The notes beneath the pieces were generated by a model. It was not told the origin of the DNA and made no database searches. It was given only the letters and a program-made list of their open reading frames with translations. A DNA stretch of 63,013 bases, counting the filler, from Kipferlia bialata (lineage: Eukaryota): assembly GCA_003568945.1 (NCBI GenBank). It is 6 parts of 6 records of this genome, joined end to end, with 100 filler letters (N's around TTAATTAATTAA, not from the genome) between each part and the next. Parts side by side here need not be neighbours in the genome. Positions count along the whole stretch, not along the records: positions 26,143 to 39,102 come from BDIP01001006.1; 5 more parts are not named here. The stretch is one strand, 5' to 3'. Shown here in pieces: positions 3,774 through 54,073 of the stretch (positions are counted from its first letter, which is position 1; the number at the start of each line of letters is the position of its first letter). The position numbers were made by a program, and so were the translations under genes.

Positions 3774-3816
<43 letters not shown>

Positions 3817-10514: not shown

Positions 10515-12902
10515 AAGTAGGCCCTGCTCATCCTGGGGTCAAAAACAAGGAAAGAAATAGAATAGGGTGTACAGGGAGACAGATACTAGCATTACACACA
10601 CAGTACACCGTAACATCGCAGCGCGAATTAGCAAAACTATAGTACACACTAGTACATTGGTTCCAACTACCTGCCTCTTCCTCTAGTCCCCTTCTCTCTC
10701 TCTCCCTCTCCCTCTGCCTCTACCTCAGGGACCACTGGCACAGAAGGGGAGGGGACGCTGGTGGTAAGTGTATATATAATATACATACAAGGTATATATA
10801 CACAATACAATAGTATATAGATGACCCGTGTACCACAGGCACTGATGGGGAGGCGATGCTAGCGTGAGAATACGCAAGAATACTTAGAATCGCTACATCT
10901 ACTCGTCGTTTGTATGTAATTGTACTTCATCAAATAATGCCCAATCACTCTTTATACATTTCTAAATAGCTAAAGGTATGTACCTAGTGTTGGGGACAGG
11001 TGAGGGTGCCTTCTTGGCTGCCTTGGTATACTCTATATATACTCACTCTATACAAGTACTTGCCATAAGTATATATATATATATTATAGTACCTAGGCAC
11101 TGGAGATGGTGCCTTCTTGGCTGCCTTGGTAAATATATATATATATATTCAAAATGCAAAAATCACTATAGTATACCCAGTTGTATATTGTAACTAGACA
11201 TATAGTAGTATAGTAGTATACCTCGTGGGCACGGGTGATGGTGCCTTCTTGGCTGCCTTGGTTATATACACTCTCTCTCTATATATATACGCTCTCTCTA
11301 TATATATATACTTGCCGTGAGTATATATATAAGTACAGTACCTAGGCATGGGAGATGGTGCCTTCTTGGCTGCCTTGGTGTTCAGAGGGGACATGGGGGC
11401 ATCGGGCTCTCTGTCTAGGGGTTAAGGGTGTAGAGGGANNNNNNNNNNNNNNNNNNNNNNNNNNNNNNNNNNNNNNNNNNNNNNNNNNNNNNNGAGAGAG
11501 AGAGAGAGAGAAGAGGGGACATGGGGGCATCGGGCTCTCTGTCTAGGGATTAAGAGCGTAGAGAGAGAGAGAGAACAGTAAATCATGATTGGGGAGCATA
11601 GTATGTAAAATATATGAATATATGTACCCTGCAGGTAGTTCCACAGCTGGGGGTGCTTCCTCCTCAGGTGTATCCTCATCATGGAGGGGTATGCCTCGTG
11701 GTGGAGGCAGTCAGGGGCTGGGCAGGTACTAGTATAAGGTATGTATATGTGTATATATCTATATATATATAGAGAGAGAGAGAGTGGATTGGCAGGTACT
11801 TTGAGTGAGAGGTAGATACCACTCTATGAAGTCACAAGAGTGTATGAATACACATGTATTATATATACACTGTACACTCACTCTATGTAGTCGAAGAGGC
11901 ATATATACAATATATATACATATATACATATATAATACACTATATCAGATAGTATACAATATACACTCACTCTATGTAGTCAAAGAGTGTAAGCACACAT
12001 ATACTTATAGAGTATACTTATAGAGTACACACTATATATACACAATTCACTATAACACACTTAGAGAGAGAGAGAGAGAGAGAGAGTTAGGGATATACAT
12101 ATAGAGGCACTCCAATACACTATATACACATACTCTATGTAGTCAAAGAGTGTCCTGACTGTACTCTATATATATACACACTCCTAGCTATGGCAAGGGT
12201 ATCAAGTCATCTATACACAATATAGAACACATATACACTATATGAAAGTATATATAAACAGTGTATACACATATACACACTGGATACATACTCCATGTAG
12301 TCAAAGAGTGTCCGTGCTATGGCCAGGGCATCAAGGCATAGAGATATATATGTACTCTAACACATAGTATATACACTATATATGTATATATCTTGTGTAT
12401 ATATACACTCACTCTATGTAGTCAAACAGTGTCCGTGCTATGGCCAGGGCATCAAGGCACATATATACAATATATATACTTATATATACTCTAACACACT
12501 ATACATATACTATATATATATACACTATATGTATGTATCTAGTATATATAGTGATATACACTCACTCTATGTAGTCGAAGAGTGTACGTGCTATGGCCAG
12601 GGCATCAAGGCATATACATACACAATACACTACAGTGTATACTATACATAAGTATATATACTACATATATATACACACTATCCATACTCTATGTAGTCGA
12701 AGAGTGTCCGTGCTATGGCCAGGGCATCGAGGCATATAGATATGTATATATATACATACAGTATATATATACTACTATACACTTTATCAAACTATATATC
12801 ATATATATACTATAGTATACACTATACATACTCTATGTAGTCGAAGAGTGTCCGTGCTATGGCCAGAGCATCGAGGCACTCGGTCTCAGTGTAGGTATCG
12901 TC
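8531..12902 (-). CDS. Multi-exon hypothetical protein (5' partial), basic and low-complexity
   Basis: Exons with CCCAG acceptors and GT donors: DDTYTETECLDALAIARTLFDYIE, ...HHEAYPSMMRIHLRRKHPQLWNYLQ, ...KAAKKAPSPMP, ...KAAQRVESEPEAPR, HRPKMTATQKRRAAAQQK, and last exon RTYLADEALLIRQ...LDYERSLQ-TGA (8531-8533). No family recognised. Confidence 0.6.
11820..12902 (-). repeat. Half-exon array: about eight 3' half+donor copies downstream of the intact exon (about 12902-12830)
   Basis: Plus-strand ACTCTATGTAGTC(A/G)AAGAGTGT(CCGTGCTATGGCCAGGGCATC) recurs with AT-rich spacers. Confidence 0.95.
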
Positions 12903-13074: not shown

Positions 13075-13077
13075 NGG

Positions 13078-13129
<52 letters not shown>

Positions 13130-14764: not shown

Positions 14765-14959
14765 GGACCACCTTGTGAAAAGCCGGCTTTGTCAGGCTAG
14801 ACCGACCTCCATTCTGATCATCAGAGACAAAAAGCTTGAAGGGTTTGTCGAGGCAGCTGCCTGGCAATGCCAGTGGCATCATATCGGACTCACTCTCTTA
14901 CACAAGCAAAGGGGGTAACAACAACCCATCCCCCCCGCGCCACACCACGCACCTACTTG

Positions 14960-18823: not shown

Positions 18824-19362
18824 CACCTTCACTGCCTACCCTAGGCCTGTGTCCTTCACTCCTGTGCCTCTTATGTCACCTTCTTTTGTTAGTCTCACCC
18901 CTTTATAGTGTATGTGTCTTTATTAGTTTCAACTGGTGTTCGTGAGCCAACTCTATGTGAGTCAGTTACCTTCCAGTTATTTGTTGTCGTCTGTATTTTT
19001 GTACCACTAAATTGCGAGCCATTCCGACTGTCTATTGGAGAGTATTGGTATGTGTGTCAATGTAAGAGGCAAGGTATCGTTGTGTTTGTGTTTATATTAG
19101 CACTGATCTATTCCTCGCTGCCCTCCTCAAGTAGAAGTTCTAGAAAGAGCATCAAGAAACATTAATAGTTAATATATACAAGGAACGTACATCTAGATCT
19201 TATACTCTAGAACTACTAGCTAATAATTAATGGCAGTGCGTAAGTCCCTGTCGACCAATGACGTGTAGTTTTTGCTTAGTGGGACCCTTAGATCTACGGA
19301 TTCCAAAACAAGGACGAACGACGACTGCTCCAACACCGATTCCCAACAAACTCACTCCGATT

Positions 19363-20528
19363 ATGTCCTCTGTCACACCGGTCAATGCCTTTGAGTGGAG
19401 GTATGGATGCCCGTAGTACTTTCCACTTCTTTTGTGCATTCCTGTTGAAATGTATTTCGTCCACTTCTGTGTTCTCAATGCAGCACCTTCGACCCCTCCG
19501 GCAAGACCCATGTGATGAAGAACCTGGTCAACGGGGAGTGGCACGCCACAAAGACCACCGGATCCCTTCTCAACCCTCTTACGGGCGAGGAGGATTACAT
19601 TGTGAGTTCTATTTTGCCTTGTTTTACAGCACTTGTCACGTTGCCTCCTGGCTCTACTGCGTGAATACGGCCATCAATCAGTTGTGTTCTTACCCCAGCT
19701 CTACCCCGAGACCACCATGGAGGAGGCCCAGGTCTTCGTCGAGAGCCTGAAGAAGTGTACGTGAGTTTGTCACCTCTTCACTGTAGAGCCTATTATCCAT
19801 TCCCCCTACCCCTCACGCTATAGGCCCCAAGAGTGGCCTTCACAACCCCCTCAAGAACCCCAAGAGGTACAGGGACTGGGGAGCCATCACCTTCAAGGTG
19901 GCCACCGAGATCCGCAAGCCCGAGGTCTCCGACTACTTTGCCCGTATCATACAGGCAGTCTGCCCCAAGTCATACACACAGGCCATCGGCGAGGTCAACG
20001 TCGTGGCAACCTTCCTCGAGAACTTCTGTGGTGCGTGGTCTCCCCTGCATGGCATACATATAGTTCAGCCTGTTCTTCTACTGGCAACTCGATAAACCCC
20101 AACACTCTCTTCTATGACACCACGCCGTTACTCCTCCTTGTTTTCTTTCCACTCTGACTCTTAGGAGACCAGGTCCGCTTCCTCGGTGGAGGTGAGCATG
20201 TGCCAGGTGACAGGGTCGGGCAGCAGGCTAATGGCTACAGGTGGCCCTTTGGACCAGGTGCGTCATGGTTTGTTATTGTATTATGTATATATACATCAGC
20301 CAGCTCCCCCCCCCCCCATGTCTCTCTGTCTCACCCCCAGTGGCCATTGTTGCTCCCTTCAACTTCCCCCTCGAGATCCCCGTGCTCCAGCTGATGGGTG
20401 CCCTCTACATGGGCAACAAGGTGCTGCTTAAGGCAGCCACCACCACAGCTGTTGTCATGGAGCAGTACCTGCGCCTCCTGCTCTGGGCCGGGTGCCCACA
20501 CGAGTGCCTCGACTTCATCAACACCAGG
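19363..20528 (+). CDS. ALDH12A1: Delta-1-pyrroline-5-carboxylate dehydrogenase, ALDH12 (plant-type P5CDH); 3' end lost in a gap
   Basis: Six exons give ...KNLVNGEW...PKSGLHNPLKNPKRY...DYFARIIQAVCPKSYTQAIGEV...FLENFCGDQVRFL...GQQANGYRWPFGPVAIVAPFNFPLEIPVLQLMGALYMGNKVLLK, all ALDH12-specific motifs. Confidence 0.92.
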
Positions 20529-20546
20529 GTACGACTCTCTTTTTCA

Positions 20547-20595
<49 letters not shown>

Positions 20596-20886
20596 ACCAC
20601 CGCGGGNNNNNNNNNNNNNNNNNNNNNNNNNNNNNNNNNNNNNNNNNNNNNNNNNNNNNNNNNNNNNNNNNNNNNNNNNNNNNNNNNNNNNNNNNNNNNN
20701 NNNNNNNNNNNNNNNNNNNNNNNNNNNNNNNNNNNNNNNNNNNNNNNNNNNNNNNNNNNNNNNNNNNNNNNNNNNNNNNNNNNNNNNNNNNNNNNNNNNN
20801 NNNNNNNNNNNNNNNNNNNNNNNNNNNNNNNNNNNNNNNNNNNNNNNNNNNNNNNNNNNNNNNNNNNNNNNNNNNNNNNGTGGGGT

Positions 20887-20920
<34 letters not shown>

Positions 20921-21557
20921 GTATACATCGGACTTTGAGCAACGGTGGAATCCATCTCTTACTCTGCGTGTTGGTTCAGAGAACAAATACAGTATGGAAA
21001 CGAATGGAGGAGTAGATGTAAGTGTGTGGAATACGGCACCTATGGCTGTGGAATGCATGTCAATGTATGTCTCATCTGGGATGCACTTCTTACACAGCAG
21101 AAGGTCCGGAGAGTCCGACTTGTTGGTCTGGGGGTCAGAGAGGGAGCCAGGGAAGAGACGAATAATTCAATAGTATATCAATACTGAGCCAAGCACATAT
21201 ACCCACACAACCAGTACAAATATCACGATATTACATAACATACGTACATCCTCACTGGAACGGGACACGAGACTCATTCTCGATGTGTGCTGTCAAGAGT
21301 GTGTGGGGAGTGGACAGTGAAGAGGTGAAGATGGACACATTGGTGGTCAATACTAAACCTCGGTTTTAATTGGTGTCGCTATTTAAAATCGATGTTTGTA
21401 AATTGAATATGATAAATATAGTCTCAAATCGAGGTGATCGGCCAGCCTCCCAGAACCTCTTTCCCAAACAATCCCCACCCAACATCACACACCTGCACAC
21501 ACACCTAGACCCACTTATTCCCCTGCTCACACTTGTCTGCGTATACTGCGGCGAGTG

Positions 21558-24500
21558 ATGCCTGAGCAGGGGTCCTGGGTGATAGGCAAGGGGTCGAGAC
21601 GCCGTATGCCGACCCTCACCACCTTATGCCTGCTATTTATAGCACTGCTGGTGTCTGGGGTGGCCTGTGATGCCGGAGAGATGAGAGCGAGAGAGAAGGG
21701 CCGCCAGCCCACCCATCACTCGGGACAGAGGCTGGGACCCGGGGGGGTATCCCATGAAGAGAGTGGCCTGTCCCTTGAGGACAGTATCCAGGACACCCTG
21801 GACGCCATGGACGTCAAGGCCAGAAACTAGTGAGTGCACAGTGTGTATATATGCGTGGTGTCTTTGTGTAGTGGGATATTGGGACTAGTCATTCATTCAT
21901 CTGCCTAGTCTCCCTATCCTTCAGGCTTACTCACCCCCAGCTGTAGCTACAACTACCGCATCACCTTCAACTATGCCAGGGACTCCGACCCCGACGACAC
22001 ATTCCACCCATCTAGGTAGAGGGGGGTGTGCTAAGTGTATACATATGTGTTCATACATTTGTTATGTAGTATATAGCAGCCCTCACCCTCTAAGAATGAC
22101 TACCAGTCCTCAGTATCAGCATCTGATAATAGTATATACATATGTGGATTCATACACATGTGTTATATGGTATATGGCCCCTAATGTCCAGGAATGACTA
22201 CCAGTCCTGGCAGAGCGGGTGCGGCACCTCCTCTGTCAGCTATGGACAGAGCACCACCCCCAAGCAGTACAAGGGATACTCCCCCTACTACGGCACAGTG
22301 TCCTTCAAGGTGCGGTGTATCAGTATCATAGAGAGTATGTATAGTATATATGTAGTATCATAGGTACTTATACTATGGCACAGTGTACTTCAAGGAAGGT
22401 GTGGGTAAAGGTATTGTATTCATTTGTATCCCACGTCACACACGACATCGCGACTATTTCCGTCCGTGATCTATGTGTGCACCTACCCATCTCTCACCCC
22501 AGATTGGGTGCTGGCAGTCCTACACGTCCAGCAGAGACGTCGTGTCAGCGGTATGTATTGTCAGTGTTCTCTATCTGTCCATTACAAAATGTAAATATGC
22601 ATCTTTTTACTATATAGACACATCATGCAGAGAAGTCGTGTCACCAGATACGTGTGTTGTGGTGTATGCATACACACACATATATATAGTGTTTTATCAC
22701 TATTGCAGTGTTGTATGTGCTCTGTTTTGGTCTTCCAACCATATGCCTCATAGATATATATCTATCTATATATACCCTCACCCCAGTGGTCTGTGACGCA
22801 TGAGACTGACCCCCCCACAGACCAGTATGGAGAGCTGACCCTGCCCCATGCGCTGCTCAGGATAGACAACCCGGAGGAGGAGGTGGGGGGATGCACATGT
22901 GTGTATATGCGTATATGTGTATTTATGGATAATGTAGACACCACTACTATATTGGATAGATATCCTGGAGTGGACAGGTGTGTATAGTATCGTGCACCCT
23001 CACCCCCAGACCGTGTTCCTGACCTACTCTTCTGGCTATGGGGACAACTGCACCGGCTGCAACGTGGGGGATGGGTCTACCATCAACCTATCCCTGTACA
23101 CCCCATACTCTGGCAGCACAGACTACGCAGTCACGGCCAAGGACGCGTCAGGTATGGGTGTGTATGCATTGACACACTCGGTAACTGCACCCCCCCCAAC
23201 CCCAGGCAGTGTGCTAGGTGTGTATGAGGGTGCCCTGTCTGATGAGGATGACGTCACCCTGGAGCTGTCGGGGTCCACAGCCACACTCACCGTACAAGGG
23301 GTGGCAGGGCTCGAGGTGGGGGGAGGCACAACCATACACTCATGTCTATGTATATATCCATTGTGACTGGCATAGCATACCCTCACCCCTAGGACCTCCG
23401 GATGCTTGTGCAGGACACCTCCACTGGTCTGCTAGTGGTGGAGGAGTACCTACTCGATGACTACACATGGGGGGAGGTGGGTGGCAGTTGGGGTGTAGTG
23501 TATATGTGGCAGTCAGTGTGTGTATGCTCTCTCTCCCTGACCCCCAGGACATCTCCGTCACCCTTCCCTACGACGTTGAGTACACTGTGATGGTCAGGTC
23601 ACAGACAGACACGGTCTTCACAAGGTGGGTGTGCATATGGAGACCAGAGATACACTCCCTAGACACCCCCCCCTTCCCACCTTAGGTACCAGACCGTGAC
23701 CCTAGATGAGGATGGCACCACCGTGGTGTTTGGGTCCCACCTGATAGACCTAGACAGCACAGACATGGTGCAGCCACTCAGACTCACGCTCTACAGCGAC
23801 ACTCTGCAGAGCCAGGTACAGTGTGTGTATATATATAGCTATCCCTACTGTGGGTATATGCACTGCTCACCCCTAGGTCTTTGAGCACTACTACTCTGCC
23901 GGCACCCTGCACTCTGTACCTGTCCTCGAGGGGCCATTCTTCTATGAGGTACATATGCAGTTAGTGTATGTGGTGCCTATTCGCAGATTCACCTTTGAGT
24001 GGCTGATCGTCTTTGATCAGTGTCAAGGAGTGTATTGATATGTACGTATGATCCATATCCATGGTGTAATAGGTACTATTTGGTACTTTGTCACTGTAAT
24101 GCCGCACCCACCCCAGCTGGCCTGGCTGAGTGACTCCTCTGTGGGTGAGACCATGACATACGAGTACACCCATGAGTGCTGGGACTACATGGACGGTACG
24201 CAGTGGTGGATGTGTGTGTATATGAATATAGATACTAAAGTGCATCCCCCCCCCCACCCCAGCTGCAGACTGTGCCATCACTGAGCACATGTGCCAGGTG
24301 TCCTTTGACGCATCTACCCTGGGAGTGGCTGCACCAGAGAGCATCAGTGTGCTGTACGAGGGTACGGTGGTGGAATATATATATAGCGGTGGTGATTATG
24401 GCACCCGACTCACCCTATGTGCTGTATTGGATACATTCGTATATAGTGTAAAGCCGTATATGTATGAATGCCCCCTCACCCCCTAGGCAGTGGTGTGTAT

Positions 24501-25961
24501 GGCCAGGGCCTGGACGGGTATGACTCCCACTCAGTGGTGGTCAGTGAGTACAGTGTCAGTGGCATGGACACTACACCCCTGACAGTGCTCAGGGGCACAT
24601 ACGACATCATCATGCACTATGTAGATGGGACACTCCTGGTCAGTGACGCAGGTGGGGGGCTATGCACTCAGTGTCACACATCGTTGTATGTACTCTGAAT
24701 GTGCCTTGACTCTATGTATACATACTCTCTCTGAGTCTAACTTTCTAGGCCTGTGTACCGTGGACTCTGCTGTCACCACTGTGGACCTGGTAGACATCTT
24801 TGAGGCACACGTGCTCCCACTGCCATCAGGTGCATACGAGTGTGATAGATATAGAGATAAATATTGATATGTATACATATATACTCATATGTATACCCCC
24901 CCCCCCCTGACCCCAGGAGTCTCCTCCTCCTCCCTCACCTCCATCGACGTGTCTGAGACCACCCCGTCCAGTGACCCCCCTGCCACCATCCACCTCTCCT
25001 CTGCCTCTGCTGCCTATACTGCAGTGACAGACGGGGTGTACCTGCCCAGTGGCCATGTGTACCAGGTATGGGTTATGCACCCTTGTATATATATATAGGT
25101 TGAATACATCCTCTGACCCAGGCTGTCTACACCTCGTCCTCCGGTACCTCTACTCAGTCCAACATCATGTACACTGTGCCCTCTGCCCCTGTCAATACAG
25201 TGCAGATGGGATTTGGGACATATGCCACAGCATGCGACACAGACATGACGGTGCAGAGGTGTGTAGTGTATGTGTATGCTTTGAGTCTACCCCCCCCCCC
25301 ACCCTCTGACCCCCCAGCAGCCTAGGCGGTGTGGCCGGGTATCTCTATGCTGAGTCTGGATATGCCCTGGCAGGGAATGGAGTCGCCGACCAGGCAGCGA
25401 TAGCTAGGTGTGGGATGGGTACTACGCTCCATATCCACACTATATTATATATGTGTGATACCATTATGTATCTGACCCCAGCTACCCCTGGAACACTGGG
25501 TGTGTGCTGGTGTGGGACGATACCCTAGACACCCCAGACTGGGTGGGACACACACCCCACACCCTGGAGTCATGCACCCCCCTCGACGTCACAGTGGAGG
25601 TAGGAGGGGTGCTGTGTGTACTGTATGTATGTATCTGATCCATGCTGCATACCCCCCTCACCCCCAGACCGATGTGACTGTGACTGGCAGTGGGGGTGCC
25701 ACCCTGTCTGTGACTGTGTACACACCCAGTGCCGGCCAGAGGGTGCTGGTATCGCTGACAGGCGCCACAAAGCCAGAGGCTCAGGTGGGTGCAGCTGTAT
25801 AGTGGGATATGCCCCTCTCTTGATACTGCCACCCTCTGTCCTTCCTCTCCCCCCAGATCCCGACCTCCATCATGCGGCATGAGGGCAGAGACTATGCCAC
25901 CATCACATGCACAGAGCCAGACGCCCTGCCAGGCACACAGCCATCCACGGTGGCATCCGAG
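21558..25961 (+). CDS. Predicted secreted or cell-surface multi-exon protein, beta-rich, 3' partial
   Basis: Signal-peptide-like MPTLTTLCLLFIALLVSGVAC, then about 20 short GT-AG exons rich in Thr/Val/Ser/Asp/Tyr with scattered Cys (Ig-like character). Family not recognised. Confidence 0.6.
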
Positions 25962-25993
25962 GTCAGATCGTTTATGAATAGTATATGTTTTCA

Positions 25994-26025
<32 letters not shown>

Positions 26026-26042
26026 CCCCACCCCCGCCCCCG

Positions 26043-26142: not shown

Positions 26143-26144
26143 CA

Positions 26145-26493
26145 GGGAGGGGTGCCCAGACTCACATCCTGGGACCATCCCTTGTTCAGGTGTATAGGGT
26201 GTATATAGTATAGTATATATAGTGTATATAGTATATCTAGTGGTATATATAGTGTATATATACTTATATACCTATGTGTATGTATGACCAGGGAGGGGTG
26301 CCCAGACTCAGGGCCACCCATTATTGAAGTGTGTGTGGTGTAGTATAGTGAAGATATTCTAGTACTAATGAGACCATGTTTCTCGTTCATGTAGTTCCTA
26401 GATTGTTGTGACTCATTCCTCACTTCAGGGTTGTCCTCACCCGCACTGTAGCGGGCAGTACAGTGTATACAGTATATTGACATGTGTGTATAT

Positions 26494-26529
<36 letters not shown>

Positions 26530-28311
26530 TAATAGTGAAGATACTGACCCCCAGGGTTGTCCTGACCCGTACTGTGGTGGGTATACTGAGTGAACAGCAG
26601 ACACAGACACAGACACAGAGGTCTAGGGCGGAGGCCCCCCCTGTCCCATCCTCACCCAACGCATCGGCATCTGCATCTATGCCCGGTATGATATGTATAT
26701 ATATACACTCTATGCATTGACTATGTATTACAGTCCTCACCCGACGCATCGGCATCTGCATCAATACCGGGTGGGTGCTGTGCCTATATACTGTATATAT
26801 AGTATATATCATACACATATATATACTAGGTATTTATACAATGTCCCCTCCTGTCCTGACCCCAGGTGGGTGTTACCAGAGGTCAATACACTGTATATAC
26901 TGTAAATGTATTTTTTAGCACACATATATACTATGTATTCATACAATGTACTTTCCTGTCCTGACCCCAGGTGGGTGTTACCAGATGTCACCGGCCAGGC
27001 ACGGGGAGAGGCAGACGCAGGTAAGATAGAGTACTGTATATATGATAATGTATGAGTATATACACATATATATATTTGTATATATATCACCGGCCAGGCA
27101 CGGAGAGAGGCAGACTCAGGTAATGCAGAATACTACACATATGATACATGTATATACATATATATTTGTATATGTCATGGTGCAGACAGGAGGAGAGGCA
27201 GAGGCAGGTGAGTATATATATTATGTAATATTATATAATACCTATTAATTATTTATGTATATATTGTGGAGAGTCAGACTCAGGTAAGACATGCTGTTTC
27301 TCTTCAATGAGTGTGTTGTGCATGTGTGTTGCAGATACCTATCAGTGTGCGCTATCATTGAGTATTCCTCTGTCACCCCTCAGTCCAGCCAGACCCAGCC
27401 CCTTCTCTCATGTGTTTATACGCAATACACATATATATATTATACAATTATATATACACTCCTCTCTCTGATATGTAGGGAGGCCTGTCCACCCAGCCCC
27501 AGCCCCTGGACATGTGTGTATACGCAATATGTATATATGTATATATATTTATATATATATAAACTCAGCTCTAATCAGCAGTCTGGCCTGTCCACCCAGC
27601 CCCTGGACATGTACTTATACATACATACACACACATATATATATACTCATCTCTCACCCCTCAGTCTGGCCTGTCCACCCAGACCCAGCCCATATACATA
27701 TTCGCAATATATATATATATGTATATGTATATATATGAATACTCCTCTCTCTTATTTCTAGGCTGGCCTGTCCACCCAGCCCCTTCTCATGTATTTATAC
27801 GCAATATATGTATACATATATGTATGAACATATTAATACTCCTCTCTGATATGTAGGGAGGCCTGTCCACCCAGACCCAGCCCCTGGACATGACTGGGTC
27901 AGATGGCATAGCACCGCCCAGCCAGACCCCCCAGACACTCAGCCACACCTCTATGGCAGTGGCCATGCAGAGGTACAGGGATACATATATGTATAGTAAT
28001 ACATGTATATATATATATGAATAGGTATATAGACAGACCCCCCAGACACTCAGCCACACCAGTATGGCAGTGGCCATGCAGAGGTATAGTACTCTTGTAC
28101 CATATAGTCTTACACATTGTTCCCACCCCAGAGCCAGGGACAATGCCTATGTGTCTATGATATCTCTCTCTTTCTACATAAATATTATACTCTTTTATGT
28201 GTATATGCTATATATGTCCCCCTCTCATCCCAGGGCCAGGGACAATGCCCCAGCCCATGCCCTGTCGACAGAGGACATAGAGGGACTGGAGAAAGAGGTA
28301 TATAGCAGTAG

Positions 28312-28363
<52 letters not shown>

Positions 28364-29373
28364 ACGTACGTTCATACTGAGACATCCATCATTATTGGGT
28401 ATGACAGAAGATATACAATACATCTGTATCCCCACCCTGACCCCCCAGGTGACTGAGTATCTGACCCAGCGTGCATCCACGGCTGGGGGCATGCCAATGC
28501 ACCCCACGTTCAGGTGGGTATACTGATGTGTATATCTACTATATATATCTCCTATATAAATGTGTGTGTATATACCAATGTGTGAGTGAACACTTTGTAA
28601 GCGAAGTGGAACTGGTGGCATACTACTGCACCCCACATTCAGGTGGAGACTAGATATACTAGTGTAGTTATATATATAAAAATGTATATGTATATACATA
28701 TTAATTTTTGGTGAGTGAATACTGGTGTGAAGTGGTGTAGTGGCGTACCAATGCACCCCACATTCAGGTGGGTATCTAGACTAGTGCTGTTATATATATC
28801 TACCTGTCTATGCTTATAAATATATAAATATAAGTATATAAATATAAATATCTATGCATGTGTATAGTAGGGTTTGTGTCTAGCAGTGTAGATATGTACT
28901 GTTGACGGGTATGATTGGCAGATCAATGCACCCTGCACTTAAATAGGGCAGTTGTATATACCTATTTGAGTGTATATATATACCTACATCCCTCACCCCC
29001 AGCCACCGTCTGTCCTCTCTGCTGCACTCGGCACCGGCCACAGTCATCAGGTATATACATATATATATATATATAGATAGATAGATCAGGTATAGAAGGG
29101 TATACATGTATTGAGATAGATATTCAGTCATCAGGTAGGGAGGGTTATACGTAATAGTCAATTATGTACGCACCTGCCACAGTCATCAGGTGGGGGAGTG
29201 GAAATACGTTATAGTCTAAGATGAATACACCTTTTTGATTGTCTGTATTGTCATCATTTCACCCCCAGGCAGGGCTTCTACTCTGGCCAGACCCCCGTTG
29301 TCCCCCTCTTCTCCCACATAGAGATTGGGGTGCTGAGGCTGCCCCAGGGACTAAACACGAGGTACATATATGT

Positions 29374-29425
<52 letters not shown>

Positions 29426-30444
29426 TTATACATTCACTAAACTGTAAATATTATGTGTAGCCACAATGATGTATATATATATGTATGTATTGAGAGGGGT
29501 GCTGAGGCTGCCCCAGGGACGAGGTGTATCATCAGTATTCTGATTCATCTTATGTCCACTATTGTATATGTGTAACCAGTATACTTGATATGATACACAC
29601 ACCCATATACATATATTCTTCATATATATATTCATATTTCTCTCCCCCAGGACCATGCTCCAGACCATCCATACTGGATTCTCTCTCTCTCTCTCTCTCA
29701 ATATATATATATTCATATATTCTTTATATATATATCACCCCCAGGACCATGCTGCAGACCATCACATCTCACCCCCTGCTGTGCAGACCGGGGCCTAAGG
29801 TATGGGGGATATGTATATGCTACGTACATACTAACCCAGGATCAAATACTCACTGTGTCCATGTCTCTCCCACACACACTCTCTTTCTCTCTATACATAT
29901 ATATATATATATACACATATCCAGATCCAAAATCACACATATATACATATATGTATGTACATATATATCCTAACACCCCAGGACCAGCTAGACCCCCACT
30001 GTGCCTTCTCCCTCATGTACACCCCCCCCTCTGCCTCTATCTCTCTCTATATATATACGTCATACCCTCTAACCCCAGGACCAACTAGACCCCCACTGTG
30101 CCTTCTCCCTCATGTACACCCCCCCCTCTGCCTCTGTCAGTAGGGGTGGCCAGAGGGAGGAGGGGGTGGTCACGGGGATGGTGGCCAGGCTGGCCAGAAC
30201 GGACGCAGAGTATATAGGTACTCTTCCTATATATATGTATATACATATATTGTTTAGTATAGTATGATTATACTGGTATGGAGGGGGTGGTCACGGGGAT
30301 GGTGGCCAGGCTGGCAGGGACTGATGCTGAATATATTGGTATGTTGCTGTGTATATATGTATATAGAGGTGTATAATTTATGGATATTGGCATGGTGGCC
30401 AGACTCGCTAGGACAGACGCAGAGTTCATAGGGTTGTGAGTCCA

Positions 30445-30476
<32 letters not shown>

Positions 30477-30554
30477 GTATTTATATATGTGTGTGCATAT
30501 TGATAACCCCCAGTCTCCCAGCACCGTGCCTCTGAGTCTGAGAGGGGTTTGCCT

Positions 30555-30608
<54 letters not shown>

Positions 30609-30666
30609 CCTATACTCACTCTCAGTCTCCCAGCACCGTGCCTCTGAGTCTGAGAGTGGTTTGCCT

Positions 30667-30718
<52 letters not shown>

Positions 30719-30844
30719 CCTATACTCACCCCCAGTCTCCCAGCACCGTGCCTCTGAGTCTGAGAGGGGTGTCCCTGTCTCAGACTCAGTCATGTCATCC
30801 ATGGGGTGGCAGGGGGTGGAACCATCACTAGTAGACTGGTGTAG
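26145..30844 (+). CDS. Multi-exon hypothetical protein fragment; may be the N-terminal part of the membrane-protein gene that follows
   Basis: Exons such as VVLTRTVVGILSEQQ..., ARDNAPAHALSTEDIEGLEKE, TMLQTITSHPLLCRPGPK, DQLDPHCAFSLMYTPP... and ...VMSSMGWQGVEPSLVDWC. Phase continuity across the poly-C run near 31390 is ambiguous. Confidence 0.5.
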
Positions 30845-31345
30845 GTATGTTAATACATGTAGTGTATAGTATAATACATATGGATGTATATATGTATACT
30901 CAGTCATGTCCTCCATGGGGTGGCAGGGGGTGGAGCCATCACTGGTGGACTGGTGCAGGTACATATATATAGTGTATAGTATAATATATACTATATATAT
31001 GTAGTATATATACTCTGTCATGTCCTCCATGGGGTGGCAGGGGGTGGAGCCATCACTGGTGGATTGGTGTAGGTATAGTATATATATATGTGTGTGGTAG
31101 ATGTATACACCTATAGTATATATATACATGTATATATAGTATATATCGTGTATATATACTCTGTCATCCATGGGGTGGCAGGCAGTGGAACCTAGCTTGG
31201 TGGACTGGTGTAGGTGTGTATAGTAGTATAGTAGTATAATAGTACATAGTACATATTGTATGTATTACATATAGTATTTGTATAGTCTGTCATGTCATCC
31301 ATGGGGTGGCAGGGGGTGGAGCCTAGCTTGGTGGATTGGTGCAGG
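30510..31345 (+). repeat. Half-exon array: two 5' halves, intact exon about 30735-30844, four 3' halves
   Basis: TCTCCCAGCACCGTGCCTCTGAGTCTGAGAG occurs three times; TCCATGGGGTGGCAGG...TGGTG(T/C)AG|GT occurs five times. Confidence 0.95.
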
Positions 31346-31387
31346 TGTATAATTGCACACAACTATTTCGTTCTTTTGTATACATAT

Positions 31388-31419
<32 letters not shown>

Positions 31420-31607
31420 ACCCCCCCCCTGGGTCTGTCAATAATGTGTTAATATGTATATTGCACTCTCCTCTCATCCCTAGGCCACCCCAACCTGCTC
31501 TCTCCTATTTTCTCTCTCTCTCTCTCTCTCCTTCTCTCTTTCTCTTTGTATCTACCTATAATATATTGTAGGCTAGACTCATACCTAGGCCACTCCAACC
31601 TACTTCC

Positions 31608-31639
<32 letters not shown>

Positions 31640-31695
31640 CCGGAACCTTCAGGCTATAGTATAGTGGACTCCTTGCTATTCTCCTCTCATACCTA

Positions 31696-34600
31696 GGCCA
31701 CTCCAACCTGCTTCCCAAGCAGAGCCACGAGAAGAGAGAGACCATTAACATGGACCCCCACATCAGACACGCAGTCAAGGTACAGTGTATATCTATATAT
31801 ATATATACATGTATATATATATATATTGAGAGAGAGAGAGAGAATCAACATGGACCCCCACATCAGACACGCAGTCAAGGCTAGTTCTCTGGGTGGACTG
31901 TCTCCTGCTCCCTCTCTCTCTCTCCCTCTAGCCCCTTATTCCAGATGTCCCTCACCTATGTGTTTGTCTGGCTGGGTCTGTCCATCATTCTGCTCTGGTC
32001 CAACTGGCTCGAGGCATTCTGGAATGTAAGTGCATTCTCTACAGTATATATAGTATATAGTATATATGTATATAGTGTAGTATATATATAGAATAGTCAT
32101 TCTGCTCTGGTCCAACTGGCTAGAGGCGTTTTGGAATAGATGTATACTATACATTTATATATATAGTACATAACTTGCTTGAGGCATTCTAGAGTATTAG
32201 TATATATGTTTGTGTAGTGTATATAAGCCATTCTATACCATGTAACCCCCTGGGTGTCTGTATCTCTACATTATTGTGTGTATATTTATATATACATAAT
32301 GTATCTATAAATGTCCTCTTACCCCAGGGCTTCCAGTCCATGAACCCCCTGAGTATATATTTAGCTGCACAGTATTGTATGTATATATACAGTATTATTT
32401 GTATATATATATTGTACATATACTTACCCCAGGGCTTCCAGTCAATGAACCCCCTGGGTGTGTTCAAGGGAGAGGAGACAGTGTACCCAGACACAAGGTA
32501 CTATATATAGAGACACAATGCACACCATATATAGATATATATTAATGGATAGATGTATTGACCTTAGTGTTCAAGGGAGAGGAGCCTGTGTACACGGATA
32601 CACGGTGCATGATCCTCCCTGTCTCGCGCTCTCTCTCTCTATCTCTATCTTTCCATATCTCTTATTGTATTTCTATTTACCTTTCTTTCTAACCCTAGCC
32701 CCTGTGGCGCCTTTGCCATGCTCCTCCCCGTCTGCTACTGGATAGGTAATATACACTGATATATGTATTGGCATTGAGTAGTGATACTAGGTATTAGACA
32801 GTGTTATATTCATAGTAACATCATATACTGATACCGTTACTGTGCTTGATTCATATCTTAGTATTTGATACTGACCCTGACAGGTGAGCTGGCCCTCTGC
32901 ATAGCAATGAGGTTCACCATCAACGGTAAGCAGAGAGAGGGAGAGGGAGAGAGAGAGGGAGAGGTTATGCCTGACGTTGTGGAGGAGGTACCCGAGGAGC
33001 CAGTAGAGCGAGGGGAGGAGAGAGAGGCAGATGCAGAGACAGATGCTGAGGAGAGAGAGAGCGTCTCCACCCTCTCTCTGTTCCGTGTAGCTGTGGTGGC
33101 ATCCATTGTTGTGTGTGTGGCCCTGTCCCTAGCATCTGCATTCCTCACATACCCTGTGGAGAGGGGGGTTACACACCACTTCCAGAGAGAGGCTGTGGCT
33201 AGAGGTATACCCCACAAAATGTATTTACAAGTATGGACAATATGAGACTGAATGCCTCAATGTATCAACTGTTATATATTGTGTATCTATTATATATCCT
33301 GACCCTAGGCTACTCCATTGACATCGTTGAGGATGCCGATGATATTGATTATATAAGTATATTCTCACGTATATAATAGTATCTATATATCTATATATAT
33401 GATACTATTGAAGTCGAACCTCAGGCTACTCCATTGATATCATTGAGGATGCCGATGACATCGAGGACCTGCCATGGGTCACACTCAACGACGGGAAGGT
33501 AAATAGTGATTGTTTATGTATATGTATAAGGATAATATACATATATATACAACATTTGTCTGATACTGATACCTGCATGGGTCACACTCAACGATGGGAA
33601 GGTATTCACACTGTGCAGGAGTAAATGTTTCAATGTATGTATAAGGCCACACTCAGCTATGGAAAGACAAGCTTGTGCATTCTAGGTTACCATACAGACT
33701 CTCACTAATGTCAGGGCAACAAGTTCTGGGACCACATTGAGGCCATGCTTTACAGGTATCAGAGTTTGCATCTTCCTATGCCACTACGTTACATGTACCA
33801 TACCCTACATAAATTCTCTTATATTTGACACTTGAACATGTAGTAATTCCAGCGCATTCTTTGCACCCATCGTATTAAGTATTTATTCTCTCCACCTGTG
33901 TATGTATGTACTAACTATGCTCTCTAAATTAACTATATGTTCTCACCCCAGTGAGCTCTATCTTTCCCATCTATATATCTTTCTATATATTGAACTTAGA
34001 AGTATATATGTCAACACCCTAATATTTCAGTGAGCTATGTGCCCCCATCGTGGGTCTTTTTCCATACACTTCTCTCTCCATCTCTATCTCTCTCTCTCTC
34101 TCTATATATATATATACCAACATCAGCTCTATGGCCCCATCATGAGTATGTTCCCATACACTTATCTCTCTCTTCCCTCCCTTCTCTCTATTACTATGTA
34201 TATATATACTTACGCAAGTGAGCTCTGTGCCCCCATCATGGGTCTGTTCCCATACACTGTCAGTGGTCTGGCAGGCACAGCTATTGGGATGTATGTGGGG
34301 TTGTTATACGCAACAGGTATACTAATTCACATACATATTTTCTATTATCTATATCTTCCATTTCCTCTCTCATATACCTTCACCTAATGCCCTCGCAGAT
34401 GACATAGTTCTCTCTCTCTCTCTCTCTCTCTCTCCCCCTCTCTTTCTCTCCCTCTCTTTCTCTAATACACAGCCGATGCCCCCTCTCTCAACAAGAGTGT
34501 CATGCATCTCTATATATATCTCATCTCTATATATATATNNNNNNNNNNNNNNNNNNNNNNNNNNNNNNNNNNATCTCATCTCTATATATATATCTCTCTC

Positions 34601-37066
34601 TCTATCCCTCTTTTCCTCTCCCTCTCTCTCTCTAATACCCAGCCAATGCCCCCTCTCTCAACAAGAGTGTCAGGCACCACTTCAACAAGCTCTACTGGAT
34701 TGCAGGTATTGATCCACTCTTCCATTTCACTTTCATCTATGTATACAATCATTTTGGGTGTCATTTTTTAGTGTTATTTATTCCTTTAACAGACACAGTG
34801 GTGTTGTTTTGCATCTCACCCCCAGCCATCCTCTATGCCGTGGGTGGTGTGTGGGCTCTGGTCAGTGACAGCCCCGGATCATTCCAGGTATACAAATGAT
34901 AACATATACACAGTAACAGATCCATTGTGTATCATGCAAATTAGTTCTAGTAGAGTAGTCCCACATAATGTTGAGATATACATTCACAACTAGGGCTCCA
35001 TGTTCCTTGGCCAGATGGGTCTGATAGATGGCAAGGGGGAGTCACTCATGTTCCACACAGGTGAATGAGTGTATATATTACAATCCTATGTAGACCTATA
35101 TCTACCAACTACCTTACTTCCAGGCAACTACGAGCTGTTCCTGTGTGCCATGGAACAAGTCTATGTTCTCTATTATTAGTATATGTGTATTCAAATCTAT
35201 ATGTAAGTGTAAGCTAACCCTAGGCAACTACGAGCTGTTCCTGTGTGCCATGGAGCTTGTTGTTGTGATATTTGTCATAGACAGGGTGGACCTGAGGAAG
35301 ACACAGGAGGAGAAGGTATTGTAATGAGTATACATATGTGTGTGTGTGTGTATACATATATAAGTGTGTGTTGTATAGTTGGTAGAGTATATACGGATTT
35401 GCTGTGAGTGGTGGCGTACTACTATTGTTGGATACGACATTATATATGCCCTAAGGCCAGGACGACATACTAATAATGGTTAACAAAATTACTTTTTAGA
35501 TTATTATTGGCGTTCTTGCTGTTAATGACGTTCCTCTACTCTTAAACACGGGAATATAGTCTAATGTCAGGACGCCCTGGCCGCCAAGACCCTGTGGCTC
35601 CGTAGACTGGGGACATACTCCCTGTCCTGCTTTGTGTATGACGACATCTACTTCGGTACGAGTATCCATCCAGTCATGCATTTGTGGTGTGTGTCCCTGG
35701 TGTCATGCAATTCATCTTGTCTAGTTTTCCTCACATGTCCGATACTGGAATATACTTTACTTATGGTATATAGTATAATTTCCATATATGATGTATATTG
35801 ACCAGTAGGTGTCCCTCAGATGTGAATGAATATATATATGTGTGTATTATGCATTTATGTATAGACAATTCATACGTCATATTGACCCCAGGTGTCCTGC
35901 AGCTCATAGTATCTGTGGTTAACTGCCGATACTAGTATATATGTATACATATTACTATTCGGACAGTAGTGATAATGATACTAATCCCTAGGTCTCCTTC
36001 AGCTCCTAGCCTCTGTGTTCAACCCCACCTGTCTCAATGATAATGGACACTTGACAGAGTGCCAGGGAATCACAGGTTAGTATATATATACATACACATG
36101 TACTCATTATATATGTATTTGAGTATTTGTGTGAGAGTATGGGCAACCAGCTGTAATAGAATGCATGTTCTATACATAGACTCTGTACACACGTATGTAT
36201 GAACTGTTTTGTGTACTCCTCTCACTCCAGCCATGTTCTACTTCCTGATAGTGGGTATGGCCACTGACTGTGTGTGTATATACATATACACATATCTATT
36301 TGTACACTTGTATGCACTTACTACATACTCTAACCCCAGCCATGTTCTACTTCCTGATAGTGGGAATGGCCACCGTGTTCGGTCTCATGCATGTCTTTGA
36401 CCTGTCCCTGGGCACACTGTCCATCGACTACCCCTTGAGTGCTATCACAGGTAGGGTATTTATGTATATATAGACTACTACCCTATATGATATATATATT
36501 TATAGTCATATCACCTGCATATTTCTGTGTTTCTGGGCACACTGTCGATCGACTACCCACTCAGTGCTATCACAAGTGAGTATTAGGTTGCCAATCGGTT
36601 GTATATATCCGACCCACTCCCCCTCTAACCTACAGGCCTTGGCGCCCATGTTATGGGCTTTGCTTCTCTTTTTTCATCTACTCTTATTGTCATGGAATAC
36701 TGTGGTACTGGTAACCATCGGCTAACCGACAGGCCTTGGCGCCCACATTGTTGAGCGTGTGGTGTGGGTATATGACATGATCTGGTGGAAGAGACGCCAG
36801 GGCAAGGGGGGAGAGGCTGAGGGAGATGAGGGTACTGAGGATCCTAGGCCCAAGATTGGCGGTCCAACCCTGTACAAGAGGTATACTATGATGATATGTT
36901 AACAACACTCATATTCTGAATACTTCCAATATATGTCCATAACAGTATCCTCACAATCAGGGTCAGACCAGGCATGGACAAGAACCACAACAACATCACT
37001 GTCCTGTCTCTAGTGGCCAAGGACCCCGACCAGGAGGAAGGCGGAAAGGCAGGGACGACAGTCTAA
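31696..37066 (+). CDS. Polytopic membrane protein with weak resemblance to the DUF418/HGSNAT-like C-terminus
   Basis: Spliced ...HAVK|PLIPDVLTYVFVWLGLSIILLWSNWLEAFWN|GFQSMNPLG..., many hydrophobic segments, LRRLGTYSLSCFVYD, ending ...GKAGTTV-TAA at 37064-37066. Synonymous changes in the intronic copies support this frame. Family assignment is tentative. Confidence 0.6.
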
Positions 37067-39202: not shown

Positions 39203-39265
39203 GGGTGTGTGAAAATAAATACCCCCCCCCCCCCCCCCTTCCCGACTCCCCCTCTCACCCATCAG

Positions 39266-42200
39266 TCCTCCAACTCCTATGAGTTTGGCCAGATGACCCC
39301 CACCTCCATACCCAAGAGAGAGGTAATGCCCCAGCCACGGAGGGGGCAGTCCAGCATGGCACAGAGCATGGACAGGTGTGGAGTGTTATATAGTATAGAT
39401 GTATGTGTTGCAGGGTGGATTCATATTCCTGTGTGTCTATCTCAACACCACTCTCCTCACTGCAGGATTGTTGACACCCTCCTAGACGATGAGGGGTGTG
39501 GCACCTCTCCCTCTGCCGGGGGACTACCCGCTGTGGCTGAGCACCCAGGCAGTGGCATGGCCAGGGAGAGAGGGTCCAGAGGGCTGCCAGGTACGTAACA
39601 CTTATACTTATATATGTACAAATGTATAGATCCCACTGTGTGTCTGACCCGCCCCCTGATGCCGCAGGAGACGTATACCTGGCCTGTGATGACTGTGATG
39701 AATCAGAGAGCAGTGGGGATGTGGAGAGGGCCAGGTCCAGGGGCAACACTCCCAAGGGCCCCCCTCCCTCTGCCCCCTGGGGTGTGGACAGAGCCAGGGT
39801 CAGGGGGACCCACCCCAGGGGCCTGCCCCCCAGAGACACCAGCTCCTATGCAGGTGCAGCCAGTCCCAACCCATCCCGGGCATACAGAGAGGGCAAGGCG
39901 GCCCTGCCCCCCCACCCCACGCAGCGTCTGCCGGCCCCTGCCAATCTGACTGGGAGCACCCTCATGTCGATGCGGGACTCTGCACACGTGGCCACCATAG
40001 GGAAGAGGCAGATCAGCTGGTGCGGGTCCACCCTGCCTGGCGTGCCCCCCAAGCCCAGTGCAGGTGGGGACAGGTGCCAGTGTGCACGCACCCGGCTTGG
40101 CAGGGAGTGCCAGGATGGACGGGAGGCAAGGGGGGAGAGGGACGGTAAGGGACCCTGCCCCTGTGCCGGTGCGTCCTCTGCATCCAGGACACGCTCACCC
40201 ACCATATCCAGCTCATCGTCCAGGTGGGTCACTGCATTCATATATATGTGTATGTGTATATGTATGTATATGTGTGTATATACTGCCCCCCCACCCCAGT
40301 TCATCCGACTTCAAGAGGTCTGACGTGTCTGACAGTGACAGCAGTGACATGCCTAGACCTAGGCCGAGGGTCGCATCTACTGGTCACGAGAGCAGTGCTG
40401 AGTCGTCGGAGTATGGCAGTCCCCAGGGGCCCAACTCATCAGGGTGTGCACCCCTGAAGCTCTCCATCCCAGGTGTATTCGATATTTACATTATGATACT
40501 GATTCATGTCGTGTAGATGTTGATATATGTATATACTGACCCAGGCCAGCACCGCGGCAGGGGCCACTCCGACTCTGACCACGAGGGGGAGAGAGAGGGC
40601 GAGGGGTCTGAGTCTGGGCTGTGGCAGAGGCGGCACTCCCAGTCAGACCAGTCGCACTCGGGGTACAGCGCCGGGGGGGCATTCGGCCACTCTGCGGCAT
40701 CGATGAGAGATGCACAGAGGGAGAGGGAGAGAGAGAGGCTGGCAGACATGGACAGGCGCCACGGCACCCGCACCTCCACCCCCCCTGTGTCTGAGTCCAT
40801 AGGCATCAAGGGGAGAGGCAAGGCTCAGTCTCTGCACCTGGACTCCAGCATAGGCACCGACTCCAGCGGGTCTGTGCTCAGGGTGTCAGGGCCATACGAG
40901 TTTGGGACACCTAACCTCACGGCCAAGGCAGAGGCGCAGTCCAAGTCTAAGTCCAAGTCCAAGTCCAGCGCAGACACTTCCTGGGAGGTACAGTGTGTAT
41001 GTGTAGAGGTCATATAATGAAGTGCTCTCGATGCACCCCCCCCCCCCACCCCAGGACATCCTGTCTGGCATGGCGGGTATACAGGAGGCAGAGGCCAGGC
41101 AGGCAGAGCAGGAGAAGGCAGAGTACTCCAACGCCCTGCTGCACCTGAGAGATGGTCTGGGGCCCTCCCCCGGCCCACCATCCAGCGCAAGAGGCAGGAA
41201 CCACTCTTCCGACAGGGCGTCTGGGTCCATCCCCCACAGGACGTACTCCTACCCCAACGCCCACCTCGGCGATGACTTGAAGGGCAGGGGGGACAGGAGG
41301 GGGTCTCAGTCCGAGCACTCCTCCTCTCTCTCCCAGTCCTGCCCCGGGTCTCTGCAGTGTCCAGACTCCAGACAGAACACAGAGTCCAGCGGGGACTTCT
41401 GTCCATCACCCAGGGCTCAGGTGTGTATTGATGTTGTGTGATGGTCTAGTCCCCCCCCCCCCTCCCCCCCTTCCCTACCCTCTCACCCCAGGCTGCAGCT
41501 GCGAGGCGTGCCCTCGAGGCTGAGGCCGAACATGCCCAGACGGTGCAGCTGACCTTTGGGCCTGGGACCGTGACCAAGAGTGGCCAGGCAGGGCTGTCGG
41601 AGAGTGTGGCCAGAAAGATCCTGCCCAGGAGTGTGCTGGCCCAGAACATACACGACGCCATGCACCTCTACAAGGTGTGTGGTCATAGCGGTGTATGTAC
41701 AGTCTACTATGGTCTCACTCTCACCCCAGGGAAAGACCCGTATCCGCAGGGGGGAGAGAGAGAGGGCCATCGAGGCCCAGAAGTATGACCTGAGCCACAG
41801 GGACAGGACCCCCTACGAGAGGAGGATGGATGACATACTGGTGGCCATCTCAGCTGGGCCCAACCTGAAGTCCCCCAACCTCAGGATAGGATGGGGGGGC
41901 AGCACCGCCCTGAAGGTGCTGGGGAAGGCGGTGTGGGGCCTCCTACCCGCCACGCTGCTCTCCCTCTTTGCCTTCAGTGAGGTGACAACAGCGGCCATCA
42001 TAGCGACGGGGGCAGCCCTGCTGGTGGGCCTCACCATCCTGGCGGTCTACCTCATACACATATCGGTGCGGCCCATCATGTTCATATTCGCCCAAACATG
42101 TATCTTACCCAGTGTCTTTGCCTGAAGGTCTTTACCTTCCCCTGTCCGTGTTATAGTTGTCCACTCACCCTCACCCTCAGATGCGCTCTCTGACCCCTGC

Positions 42201-43877
42201 CCCTGGCAAGCTGTGTGCCTCCCACCTCCTGACTTCCTGGGACTTCCAGCTCCCCACCCACCAGTCCGTGCGGGAGGCACAGGGGTTTATGAGGTGTGTA
42301 TATATTCCATGTATGACCCTTGAGTGAATGTGACATGTACACATGTATGTCTCTCCGGCCCTCACCCTAGGATGCGGGGCCGTATCCTAGCTCGGACATA
42401 CCAGTCCAGACATCAGAAGCATGTCCACGCCATGTCCAAGTACCTGCTCCCCGTGTGTGTGGGTGTGAGTGGCCTCATAGGGATGGGTCTGTCCTACATC
42501 AGTCAGACCCCGGCCATGGTGAACAGACACACACTGATGGGGGTCATCACAGCCACAGTATACACACTCATACCATTCGGTATATCCATGGTACACTCCC
42601 AGGTGGGGGTGGCTGATGACCTAACCCTCTCTCTCTCGCTCTCTCTCTTCCTCACCCTAGGTCACAGGCTTTGCCCCCTGTGGAGCTGTTGCGGCAGGTG
42701 GCTTCTGTGGGGGTCTCGCCATCATCATGCCCATCATATCCCATGCCATATACCTCACAGGGGGGGTACAGATGGAGGAGGGAGAGCTGCTCGAGTCCGT
42801 GTTGTTCTCGCTGTGCTACGTCCCGCCCATTGTAATTTTCCTGGTGCGGGGTGTCATACTCGCTGGCTTGTCACGCCTTGTCACCTTCATCAGAGAGGGC
42901 CCAGGGGCCACCACTGAGTGCCGCCTTGCCTTCCCCACCCAGCCCATGTGTGCCCTGACCTGTCTAGCCGTGCCCCTGTCCGTGGTCTCGGCTCTTGAGT
43001 TCACCAACCTCTTTGCCTTTGTATGGGCACCCCCGGTCCTGGTCCCAGTGGCATGCAAGCTGGCATTCAAGCTGATTGGCGGGACAGGGTTTGCAGGCAG
43101 CCCAACGACAGGTACAGTTGTCACTGTCAATGTCATGTATAGCATTATTGGATTATGTGAATACCAATAGGGTCTTTATGTGTCACTGACCCCAGTTGTG
43201 CGCACCAGCGCTCTGCTCCTGGCCGTTGCATGTCTTATGTCGGTGGAGGTACGGTACCTCTGTCCCTCTATCTCTCTCTCCCTCTCTGTCACTCTCTCTA
43301 CCTGCCCCCCCCGACCCCAGTGCATACTGTACGAGGCCCAGGTCCCCTCCACCCTGCTGGAGGGCAGGTCCTTCTGGGAGCACATCGAGGTGGGGCATGT
43401 CTATAACGGGTGTGCGTACCTCTCTCCCCTCCACACTCCCACCCCCTCCTCGCCTCTCCCTCACCCCAGCACACCCTGGGTGGGGACGACGGTGTCATCA
43501 ACATCCTGACAGAGGTGAGTCAGTGCCTAGCCGTGCGATGGTTGGGTGTAGTCTATGCACTAGTACTATATTATTACTGGTGTTATATTTACAACTATAT
43601 AGCCCCCGTCCCACCCTGATAGTGTAGGTTGTGTACTCTGGCATGGTAGTGCTGATAGTGGGCCTGTTCATGTGCTACCAGCTGACCGGAATGGTCAGGG
43701 AGAGGCGGAAGGTAGGGATGCAGCTGATTATACACTAGGTATACGCATCGTTACCCTCCTTCCCTCTCTTACCCCTAGGTCATGGATCTCTACAGCCAGA
43801 TAGACGACGAGATGTGCAAGGCCCGGCTCTACGCCATGGTCGGCATCACTCGCAGGGCACCCACCCCAGACAAGTAG
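39266..43877 (+). CDS. Long disordered N-terminus plus multi-TM domain; divergent transmembrane channel-like (TMC) candidate, 5' partial
   Basis: In-frame exons with IGWGGSTALKVLGKAVWGLL, LLTSWDFQL (compare the TMC FTSWDY motif) and several TM helices. A final TM is followed by a charged helix (VVLIVGLFMCYQLTGMVRERRKVMDLYSQ). Stop TAG at 43875-43877. Confidence 0.5.

Positions 43878-54034: not shown

Positions 54035-54073
<39 letters not shown>

Follow-up and report, generated by a model that had tools for sequence, protein, structure and literature searches.

Tandem repeats that run across exon–intron boundaries have been described as 'mirages' in amphioxus, in Adh3, troponin C, the globins BflGb6 and BflGb9 and PGBD5, by reports whose passages on the subject call the mechanism unclear (PMC3087553, PMC3902484). 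The copies of exon ends that we describe here from introns of Kipferlia bialata share the structure of mirages: 92 tandem units extend across exon–intron boundaries, either exon edge can be duplicated with its copies in the adjoining intron (54 copies of 3′ and 38 of 5′ edges), and many units retain their splice signal, GT in 44/54 and AG in 37/38. They differ from those of amphioxus in occurring in a unicellular metamonad, in touching 57 of 112 exon edges in the affected genes and in their narrow range of unit length; in addition, their divergence is mosaic and strongly biased towards silent sites, a feature that goes unreported in the passages on mirages (PMC3087553, PMC3902484). Internal tandem repeats at exon–intron boundaries also occur in human segmental-duplication genes and, as far as the relevant sections describe them, are similar in being intragenic tandem duplications over splice sites that arise by slippage or unequal crossing-over, but they create new introns or splice variants, whereas the Kipferlia copies lengthen existing introns with no use seen (PMC2812944). 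Tandem exon duplication with mutually exclusive splicing was considered and rejected, as whole exons need both an acceptor and a donor and the second site is present in 0/54 and 4/38 copies of the two kinds. Gao and Lynch (2009) reportedly treated duplication within genes as one way in which introns arise. There is also a likeness to the silent donor cassettes of gene conversion, known from the chicken Ig pseudogenes, Borrelia vls and trypanosome VSG, which are likewise unexpressed partial copies near a working gene with their coding features kept. The Kipferlia copies, however, carry splice sites with them and are spread over unrelated genes, and since their differences from the exon are mostly silent, conversion would give no protein variety.

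K. bialata is a free-living, intron-rich fornicate whose repeat-rich genome is available as a fragmented short-read assembly, and the genome paper reports two k-mer peaks, taken as diploid (PMC5874029). The window, meaning the whole stretch of DNA analysed (63,013 nucleotides, filler included), is made up of six pieces of scaffolds, separated by N runs with a linker that has stops in all frames, and is not one locus. Its main features are the following.

13020, 26087, 39147, 52204 and 59072: joins between the pieces, N runs with linker
3060-4430, plus strand: exons of a pentapeptide-repeat-like protein (labelled by eye), with many junction copies
11882..12902, minus strand: the largest array, predicted exon 12902-12832 with seven copies of its 3′ end, 0 differences at 0-fold sites
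26143..30844, plus strand: gene X, model exons 1-11, orphan and hydrophilic, the gene to which the codon-block array belongs
28031..28083, plus strand: copy of the 3′ end of exon 27857-27972, differing from it at 3 of 53 nt and showing another switch of serine family (TCT/AGT)
30079..30217, plus strand: exon 10, with its own 3′ copies at 30280-30338 and 30389-30431 and a 5′ copy at 29982-30041
31389..31429, no strand: poly-C run, where the assembly has probably misjoined two genes or omitted sequence between them
31697..37066, plus strand: gene Y, model exons 12-28, which codes for a multi-pass membrane protein and also has copies

The 92 splice-site-anchored half-exon copies lie at the edges of 56 exons in four gene stretches that were picked for their visible repeats, so that the copy counts hold for this window and for affected genes only. 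Half of these exons (28) come from the KIPB_004635 model and the other 28 were predicted and checked for open frames, the frames of genes A, B and C being predictions made without RNA. The region at 3060-4430 was left uncounted because internal protein repeats confound the counts; one gene predicted at 44.7-47.6 kb and exons whose frame was doubtful were also left uncounted. No copy was removed after the search, and a few short or poor matches are kept among the 92. The 3′ copies comprise the 3′ half of an exon with its donor and lie downstream of it, while the 5′ copies comprise the 5′ half with its acceptor and lie upstream. In a control for this polarity, 3/98 tests gave a match in reverse placement, and each of the three fell on the diagonal of a known 3′ copy of a short exon. 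Duplication of whole introns with both exon ends was rejected, as it predicts 5′ copies before 3′ copies within an intron and the opposite order is seen. Units have a median length of 107.5 nt, with 88/92 between 70 and 180 nt, three below 70 and none longer than 180; as a guess, the lower limit might be set by splice-site competition. Intron length follows copy number (rho 0.83, 27 introns). Twelve of the 92 copies are identical to the exon, and copying from the same allele therefore occurs too. The intron stubs beside the copies resemble the true stub barely more than unrelated stubs do, exceeding the 95th percentile of the null in 16% of cases, and this likeness does not track the divergence of the exon part.

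Several other traits of the window deserve mention. Decoy donors have been lost in 10/54 copies, as against 1/38 decoy acceptors. Before exon 2304-2387, four 5′ copies at 1797-2238 (plus strand) alternate between two types, giving a higher-order repeat, and in one of these types several amino acids are changed conservatively relative to the exon; the alternating copies possibly derive from a lost sister exon or a distant allele. Intron-rich genes with short introns at 13076-26042 and 39203-43900 are nearly free of copies (judged partly by eye) and adjoin copy-filled genes. Repeat density is 0-1 matches per 2 kb at 14-26 kb and 38-44 kb, and it is by this density that the genes at about 22.5-26 kb and 39.2-43.9 kb were judged copy-poor; the predicted gene at 52602-57496 is intermediate, with copies at 5/28 edges and a median intron of 108 nt. 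Acceptors throughout the window have a motif resembling a branch point immediately 5′ of a C-rich run and the AG. In this they resemble Giardia and Trichomonas, in which branch point and acceptor are fused.

The only protein match of exon 30079-30216 is KIPB_004635 of K. bialata (100% identity), a model of 846 aa that maps onto the window as 28 exons at 26143-37063 on the plus strand. It is probably a chimera of two genes, X and Y, misjoined at the poly-C run, the alternative being one missing exon at that point. We read it as two genes because a contig of run X2 (1928 nt, RNA by guess) enters sequence absent from the window past 30844, and because the part of the model that resembles its relatives by BLASTP begins with residue 306, encoded by the first codon of the exon that follows the poly-C run. 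The relatives of gene Y have about 87 extra N-terminal residues that have no counterpart in the window. Four relatives of the model were obtained with HMMER, namely a Kipferlia paralogue (47% protein identity with gene Y), two Dysnectes proteins and one unnamed protein; word-index protein searches gave a self-match only, and a Pfam search with the model protein gave no family. A weak lead is the match of one Dysnectes relative of gene Y to PF07786 (HGSNAT_cat) at E 0.0054; the Atlas lead for gene Y is Acyl_transf_3, found in 13% of members, and every row of the Atlas structure comparison has TM < 0.5. The earlier remark that the gene belongs to no evident family was borne out for gene X by the protein searches, but the downstream part does have relatives, although it probably belongs to another gene.

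The codon block that carries the serine switch is located at the end of exon 11 and in four copies downstream of it.

30514-30554 and 30626-30666, plus strand: two copies, repeating every 112 nt, of the acceptor and 5′ start of exon 11; young, with almost no differences even in the intron stub
30736..30844, plus strand: exon 11 of KIPB_004635, intact and in the TCA form, with the codons for EPSLVDWC at 30819-30842 and its donor following 30844
30898..30958, plus strand: copy 1, 3′ half with GT, of the TCA family; five codons differ, all silently
31012..31072, plus strand: copy 2, of the TCA family; six codons differ, all silently
31162..31213, plus strand: copy 3, of the AGC family, with one Gly/Ala change and with 5 nt deleted close to where it starts
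31286..31344, plus strand: copy 4, of the AGC family; eight codons differ, all silently

The preliminary description had five 24-nt blocks at 30819, 30933, 31047, 31188 and 31319, all reading EPSLVDWC, and they are exactly as it gave them, each followed by AG and, across the junction, GT. The frame of exon 11, on which that reading depended, is confirmed by stops in both other frames and by the X2 contig, which joins the end of exon 10 and matches 30734-30844 with 0 differences; the exon ends at 30840 in the NCBI model and at 30844 where this contig leaves. Tandem periods of 114 nt (array 30784-31127) and 112 nt (array 30445-30770) are present around the exon. The peptide had been taken as unchanged, which is true of EPSLVDWC in all copies, but copy 3 has GGG/GCA (Gly/Ala) besides its deletion. 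Across copies 1-4 the differences from the exon amount to 0/41, 0/41, 3/34 and 2/41 at 0-fold sites, counting two serine positions classed as 0-fold, and to 3/11, 4/11, 5/9 and 5/11 at four-fold sites. By similarity, copies 1 and 2 pair, as do copies 3 and 4, yet 18/36 informative column pairs show all four gametes and do not fit one tree, five of the columns being the single block discussed below.

The TCA and AGC families differ by one contiguous stretch of 5 nt, made up of the third base of the proline codon, the serine codon and the first base of the leucine codon, and the CCT-AGC-TTG form is common to copies 3 and 4. CTA/TTG had been counted as two changes, a number that is correct relative to the intact exon only; between the families there is one, since all four copies have G in third position. 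One multi-base event is enough for the block because the five changes are contiguous and common to two copies, and we have dropped the argument that three substitutions at the serine codon indicate long divergence: the count of steps could reflect a single event and by itself gives no date. A random 5-nt replacement would preserve Pro-Ser-Leu in 2/81 cases (our own arithmetic), and therefore the block most likely arose in a then-working exon. Jumps between the two sets of serine codons, TCN and AGY, whether stepwise or by one multi-base change, are given in the part of the literature consulted as the most frequent apparent three-base changes; the synonymous jump seen here is of this kind but separates an exon from its own copies, which lie 370-500 nt off in the intron, and is part of a 5-nt block (PMC7954308). 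With all copies counted, there are more adjacent differences than expected (45 vs 30, p 0.001), but the nearest copies alone give 19 vs 16 (p 0.19), so that an overall surplus of multi-base changes is not demonstrated. The serine switch is a minor marker, and the weight of the finding lies more on the window-wide pattern than on this switch.

This pattern is that the copies differ from their exons mainly where the protein does not change. Differences affect 108/1903 0-fold sites (5.7%) and 128/506 four-fold sites (25%) in the 92 copies, a ratio of 0.22 whose bootstrap by exon edge gives a CI of 0.16-0.32, with 0/4000 replicates reaching 0.5. If copies were made and then decayed, the ratio should be at least 0.5 because a dead copy mutates everywhere and the exon only silently. 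The ratio is 0.23 with the nearest copies only; the bias is weaker in the 5′ copies (0.32, and p=0.053 against 0.5 with the nearest 5′ copies only), and in gene C the ratio of 0.43 is not significant. Sites that vary among the copies are also silent-biased (44/435 vs 39/110 at four-fold sites), and at 9/110 four-fold sites the exon is set apart from all its copies. It was therefore right to claim that the templates had diverged as coding sequence; 'long', in so far as it came from the number of substitutions, falls away. The minimum silent divergence that must predate copying, estimated as corrected d4 minus twice d0, is 0.19 (CI 0.10-0.28), or 0.16 (0.08-0.25) with the nearest copies. The amino-acid differences, of which 102 are distinct, are of a conservative kind (mean BLOSUM -0.10 vs -0.79 under a null that ignores transition bias), and there is no drift in base composition (60 AT-to-GC and 58 GC-to-AT). 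Decay of the copies is slight, as AG is kept in 37/38 and stops occur in 3/92. Divergence does not rise with distance within arrays (rho 0.07), and mosaicism outside the exon 11 array is slight, with four gametes in 3/35 column pairs. In a toy simulation (single runs, N=200, rough) aimed at a d4 of about 0.22-0.25 and a d0 of about 0.05, rows came near the target only at theta 0.2 with homologues as donors (0.228/0.043 and 0.208/0.062), while at theta of 0.06 or less all rows with d4 above 0.2 had a ratio of at least 0.43.

Because the differences are mostly silent, the copies are likely to come from other working alleles, and the reading towards which we lean, though not strongly, is that they are exon ends of diverged alleles left in introns by repair or unequal exchange between homologues. 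The population would then have to be very diverse, with a silent diversity of ~0.16-0.19, which is at the upper end of the eukaryote range. This reading is weakened by the lower bias in 5′ copies and the non-significant ratio in gene C, by the scant mosaicism of the other arrays, by divergence that stays level with distance and by the 12 identical copies. In the X1 and X2 contigs over 30724-30962 we found neither an intact AGC exon nor a donor allele for the copies, a scan of the metagenome collection for relatives or other alleles of the exon gave none, and the contig comparison listed no variant letters on exon 11. The X2 contig has exon 11 in the TCA form only and skips the copies on both flanks; contigs drop rare forms. 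Within 30724-30962, X2 gives no cover over copy 1, which in itself proves nothing.

Under such an exchange between homologues, a break or slip would fuse the intron to a mid-exon position and yield a first unit of ~110 nt. Units would then be added or overwritten when the end of an exon and a copy on the other homologue exchange out of register, and copies 1-4 of exon 11 may share one start because such exchange would reuse the start point. The only duplications to survive would be those straddling one exon edge, on the intron side, tolerated because the outer splice sites would still yield normal mRNA. CCT-AGC-TTG would have arisen once in a working exon, by one multi-base change or via Thr or Cys intermediates, and its source allele may now be extinct or present in other isolates. 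Each intronic unit would in this way be a sample of a once-working allele. Fornicates are described as being without NHEJ and Rad51A while retaining two Dmc1 paralogues (PMC8516963), and DMC1 is described as mismatch-tolerant (PMC7809202). A bolder version, which we put forward tentatively and on balance doubt, is that mismatch-tolerant, Dmc1-only recombination of strongly diverged homologues pushes working exon ends into introns and so builds a genome-wide archive of alleles, with a silent diversity of ~0.15-0.2 and with strong decoy splice sites ignored by a reduced spliceosome. To our knowledge, lancelets have mirages without the losses of NHEJ and Rad51A.

That the copies are instead older versions of one lineage, taken from the resident exon under ordinary diversity, with the exon then drifting silently and the copy static or decaying, would be simple and would account for the identical young copies (12/92) and part of the silent bias; the farther copies of exon 11 also differ more. 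We consider it unlikely, as the ratio could not then drop much below 0.5 where 0.22 (CI 0.16-0.32) is seen, the copies differ mutually at silent sites in patterns that cannot be nested in one line of descent, and revival of copies under selection missed the observed pair at theta 0.02 or 0.06 in the rough simulation. Our doubts are much the same about donors that are paralogous genes or a second subgenome (an ancient hybrid or polyploid) rather than ordinary alleles. Two discrete types are indeed present in some arrays, TCA/AGC at exon 11 and the alternating types before exon 2304-2387, and the assembly, fragmented according to the genome paper, could miss a paralogue (PMC5874029); but gene X has no paralogue in the protein searches, gene Y has one of 47% identity in protein while the copies in gene Y are ~90% identical in DNA, and the same pattern extends across unrelated genes. 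A past hybrid and a diverse population look alike in the present data.

Two or more haplotypes placed in tandem by the assembler via TA repeats could produce a similar picture, given a short-read assembly of a genome reported as repeat-rich (PMC5874029), a unit length near the typical short-read length and a misjoin or omission 45 nt beyond copy 4. Such an artefact is nevertheless very improbable. An independently assembled X1 contig spans 30789-30932, from the exon end through the intron and the intron-to-mid-exon junction into the start of copy 1, with 0 differences (copies 2-4 lie outside it), and run X1, possibly the assembly's own source data, contains 0.87 of the sampled words of 26150-34500. 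This bridging contig has a depth of 388, close to the 402 of the exon contig, and the piece common to copies 1 and 2 has 832, a weak argument as contig depth is not copy number; up to seven distinct copies occur at one edge, which therefore do not represent two haplotypes. Least probable of all, in our judgement, is that the copies are in use and are kept coding by alternative or recursive splicing. Use would directly account for the constraint, and the decoys are strong, with 31/54 donors and 31/38 acceptors reaching the 10th percentile of true sites, but an acceptor of true strength stands at the start of 0/54 3′ copies and a donor at the end of 4/38 5′ copies, when random intron windows have such sites at 19% and 16%. 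Moreover, offsets are not multiples of three (35/24/33), three copies contain stops and the single X2 contig has the TCA form.

The structure of the copies is already known from mirages, and what is new is a dense metamonad case with differences that follow the codons. In the literature, covered by title and start of abstract, we found no report of junction copies in Kipferlia or any protist and none of codon-structured divergence of junction repeats; the main text of the K. bialata genome paper has no mention of duplication, heterozygosity or polymorphism (PMC5874029). The K. bialata spliceosome is described as reduced, with 87/174 of the proteins searched for (PMC6679479), and it apparently passes over decoy splice sites that are almost perfect and lie 100 nt from real ones. 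A metamonad case as dense as this makes the mechanism of mirages testable, since alleles from other isolates should match the copies. If copying from other working alleles is true, a major factor behind intron length would be identified for an intron-rich fornicate, and one genome would reveal the diversity of its population together with evidence for genetic exchange and the history of recombination.
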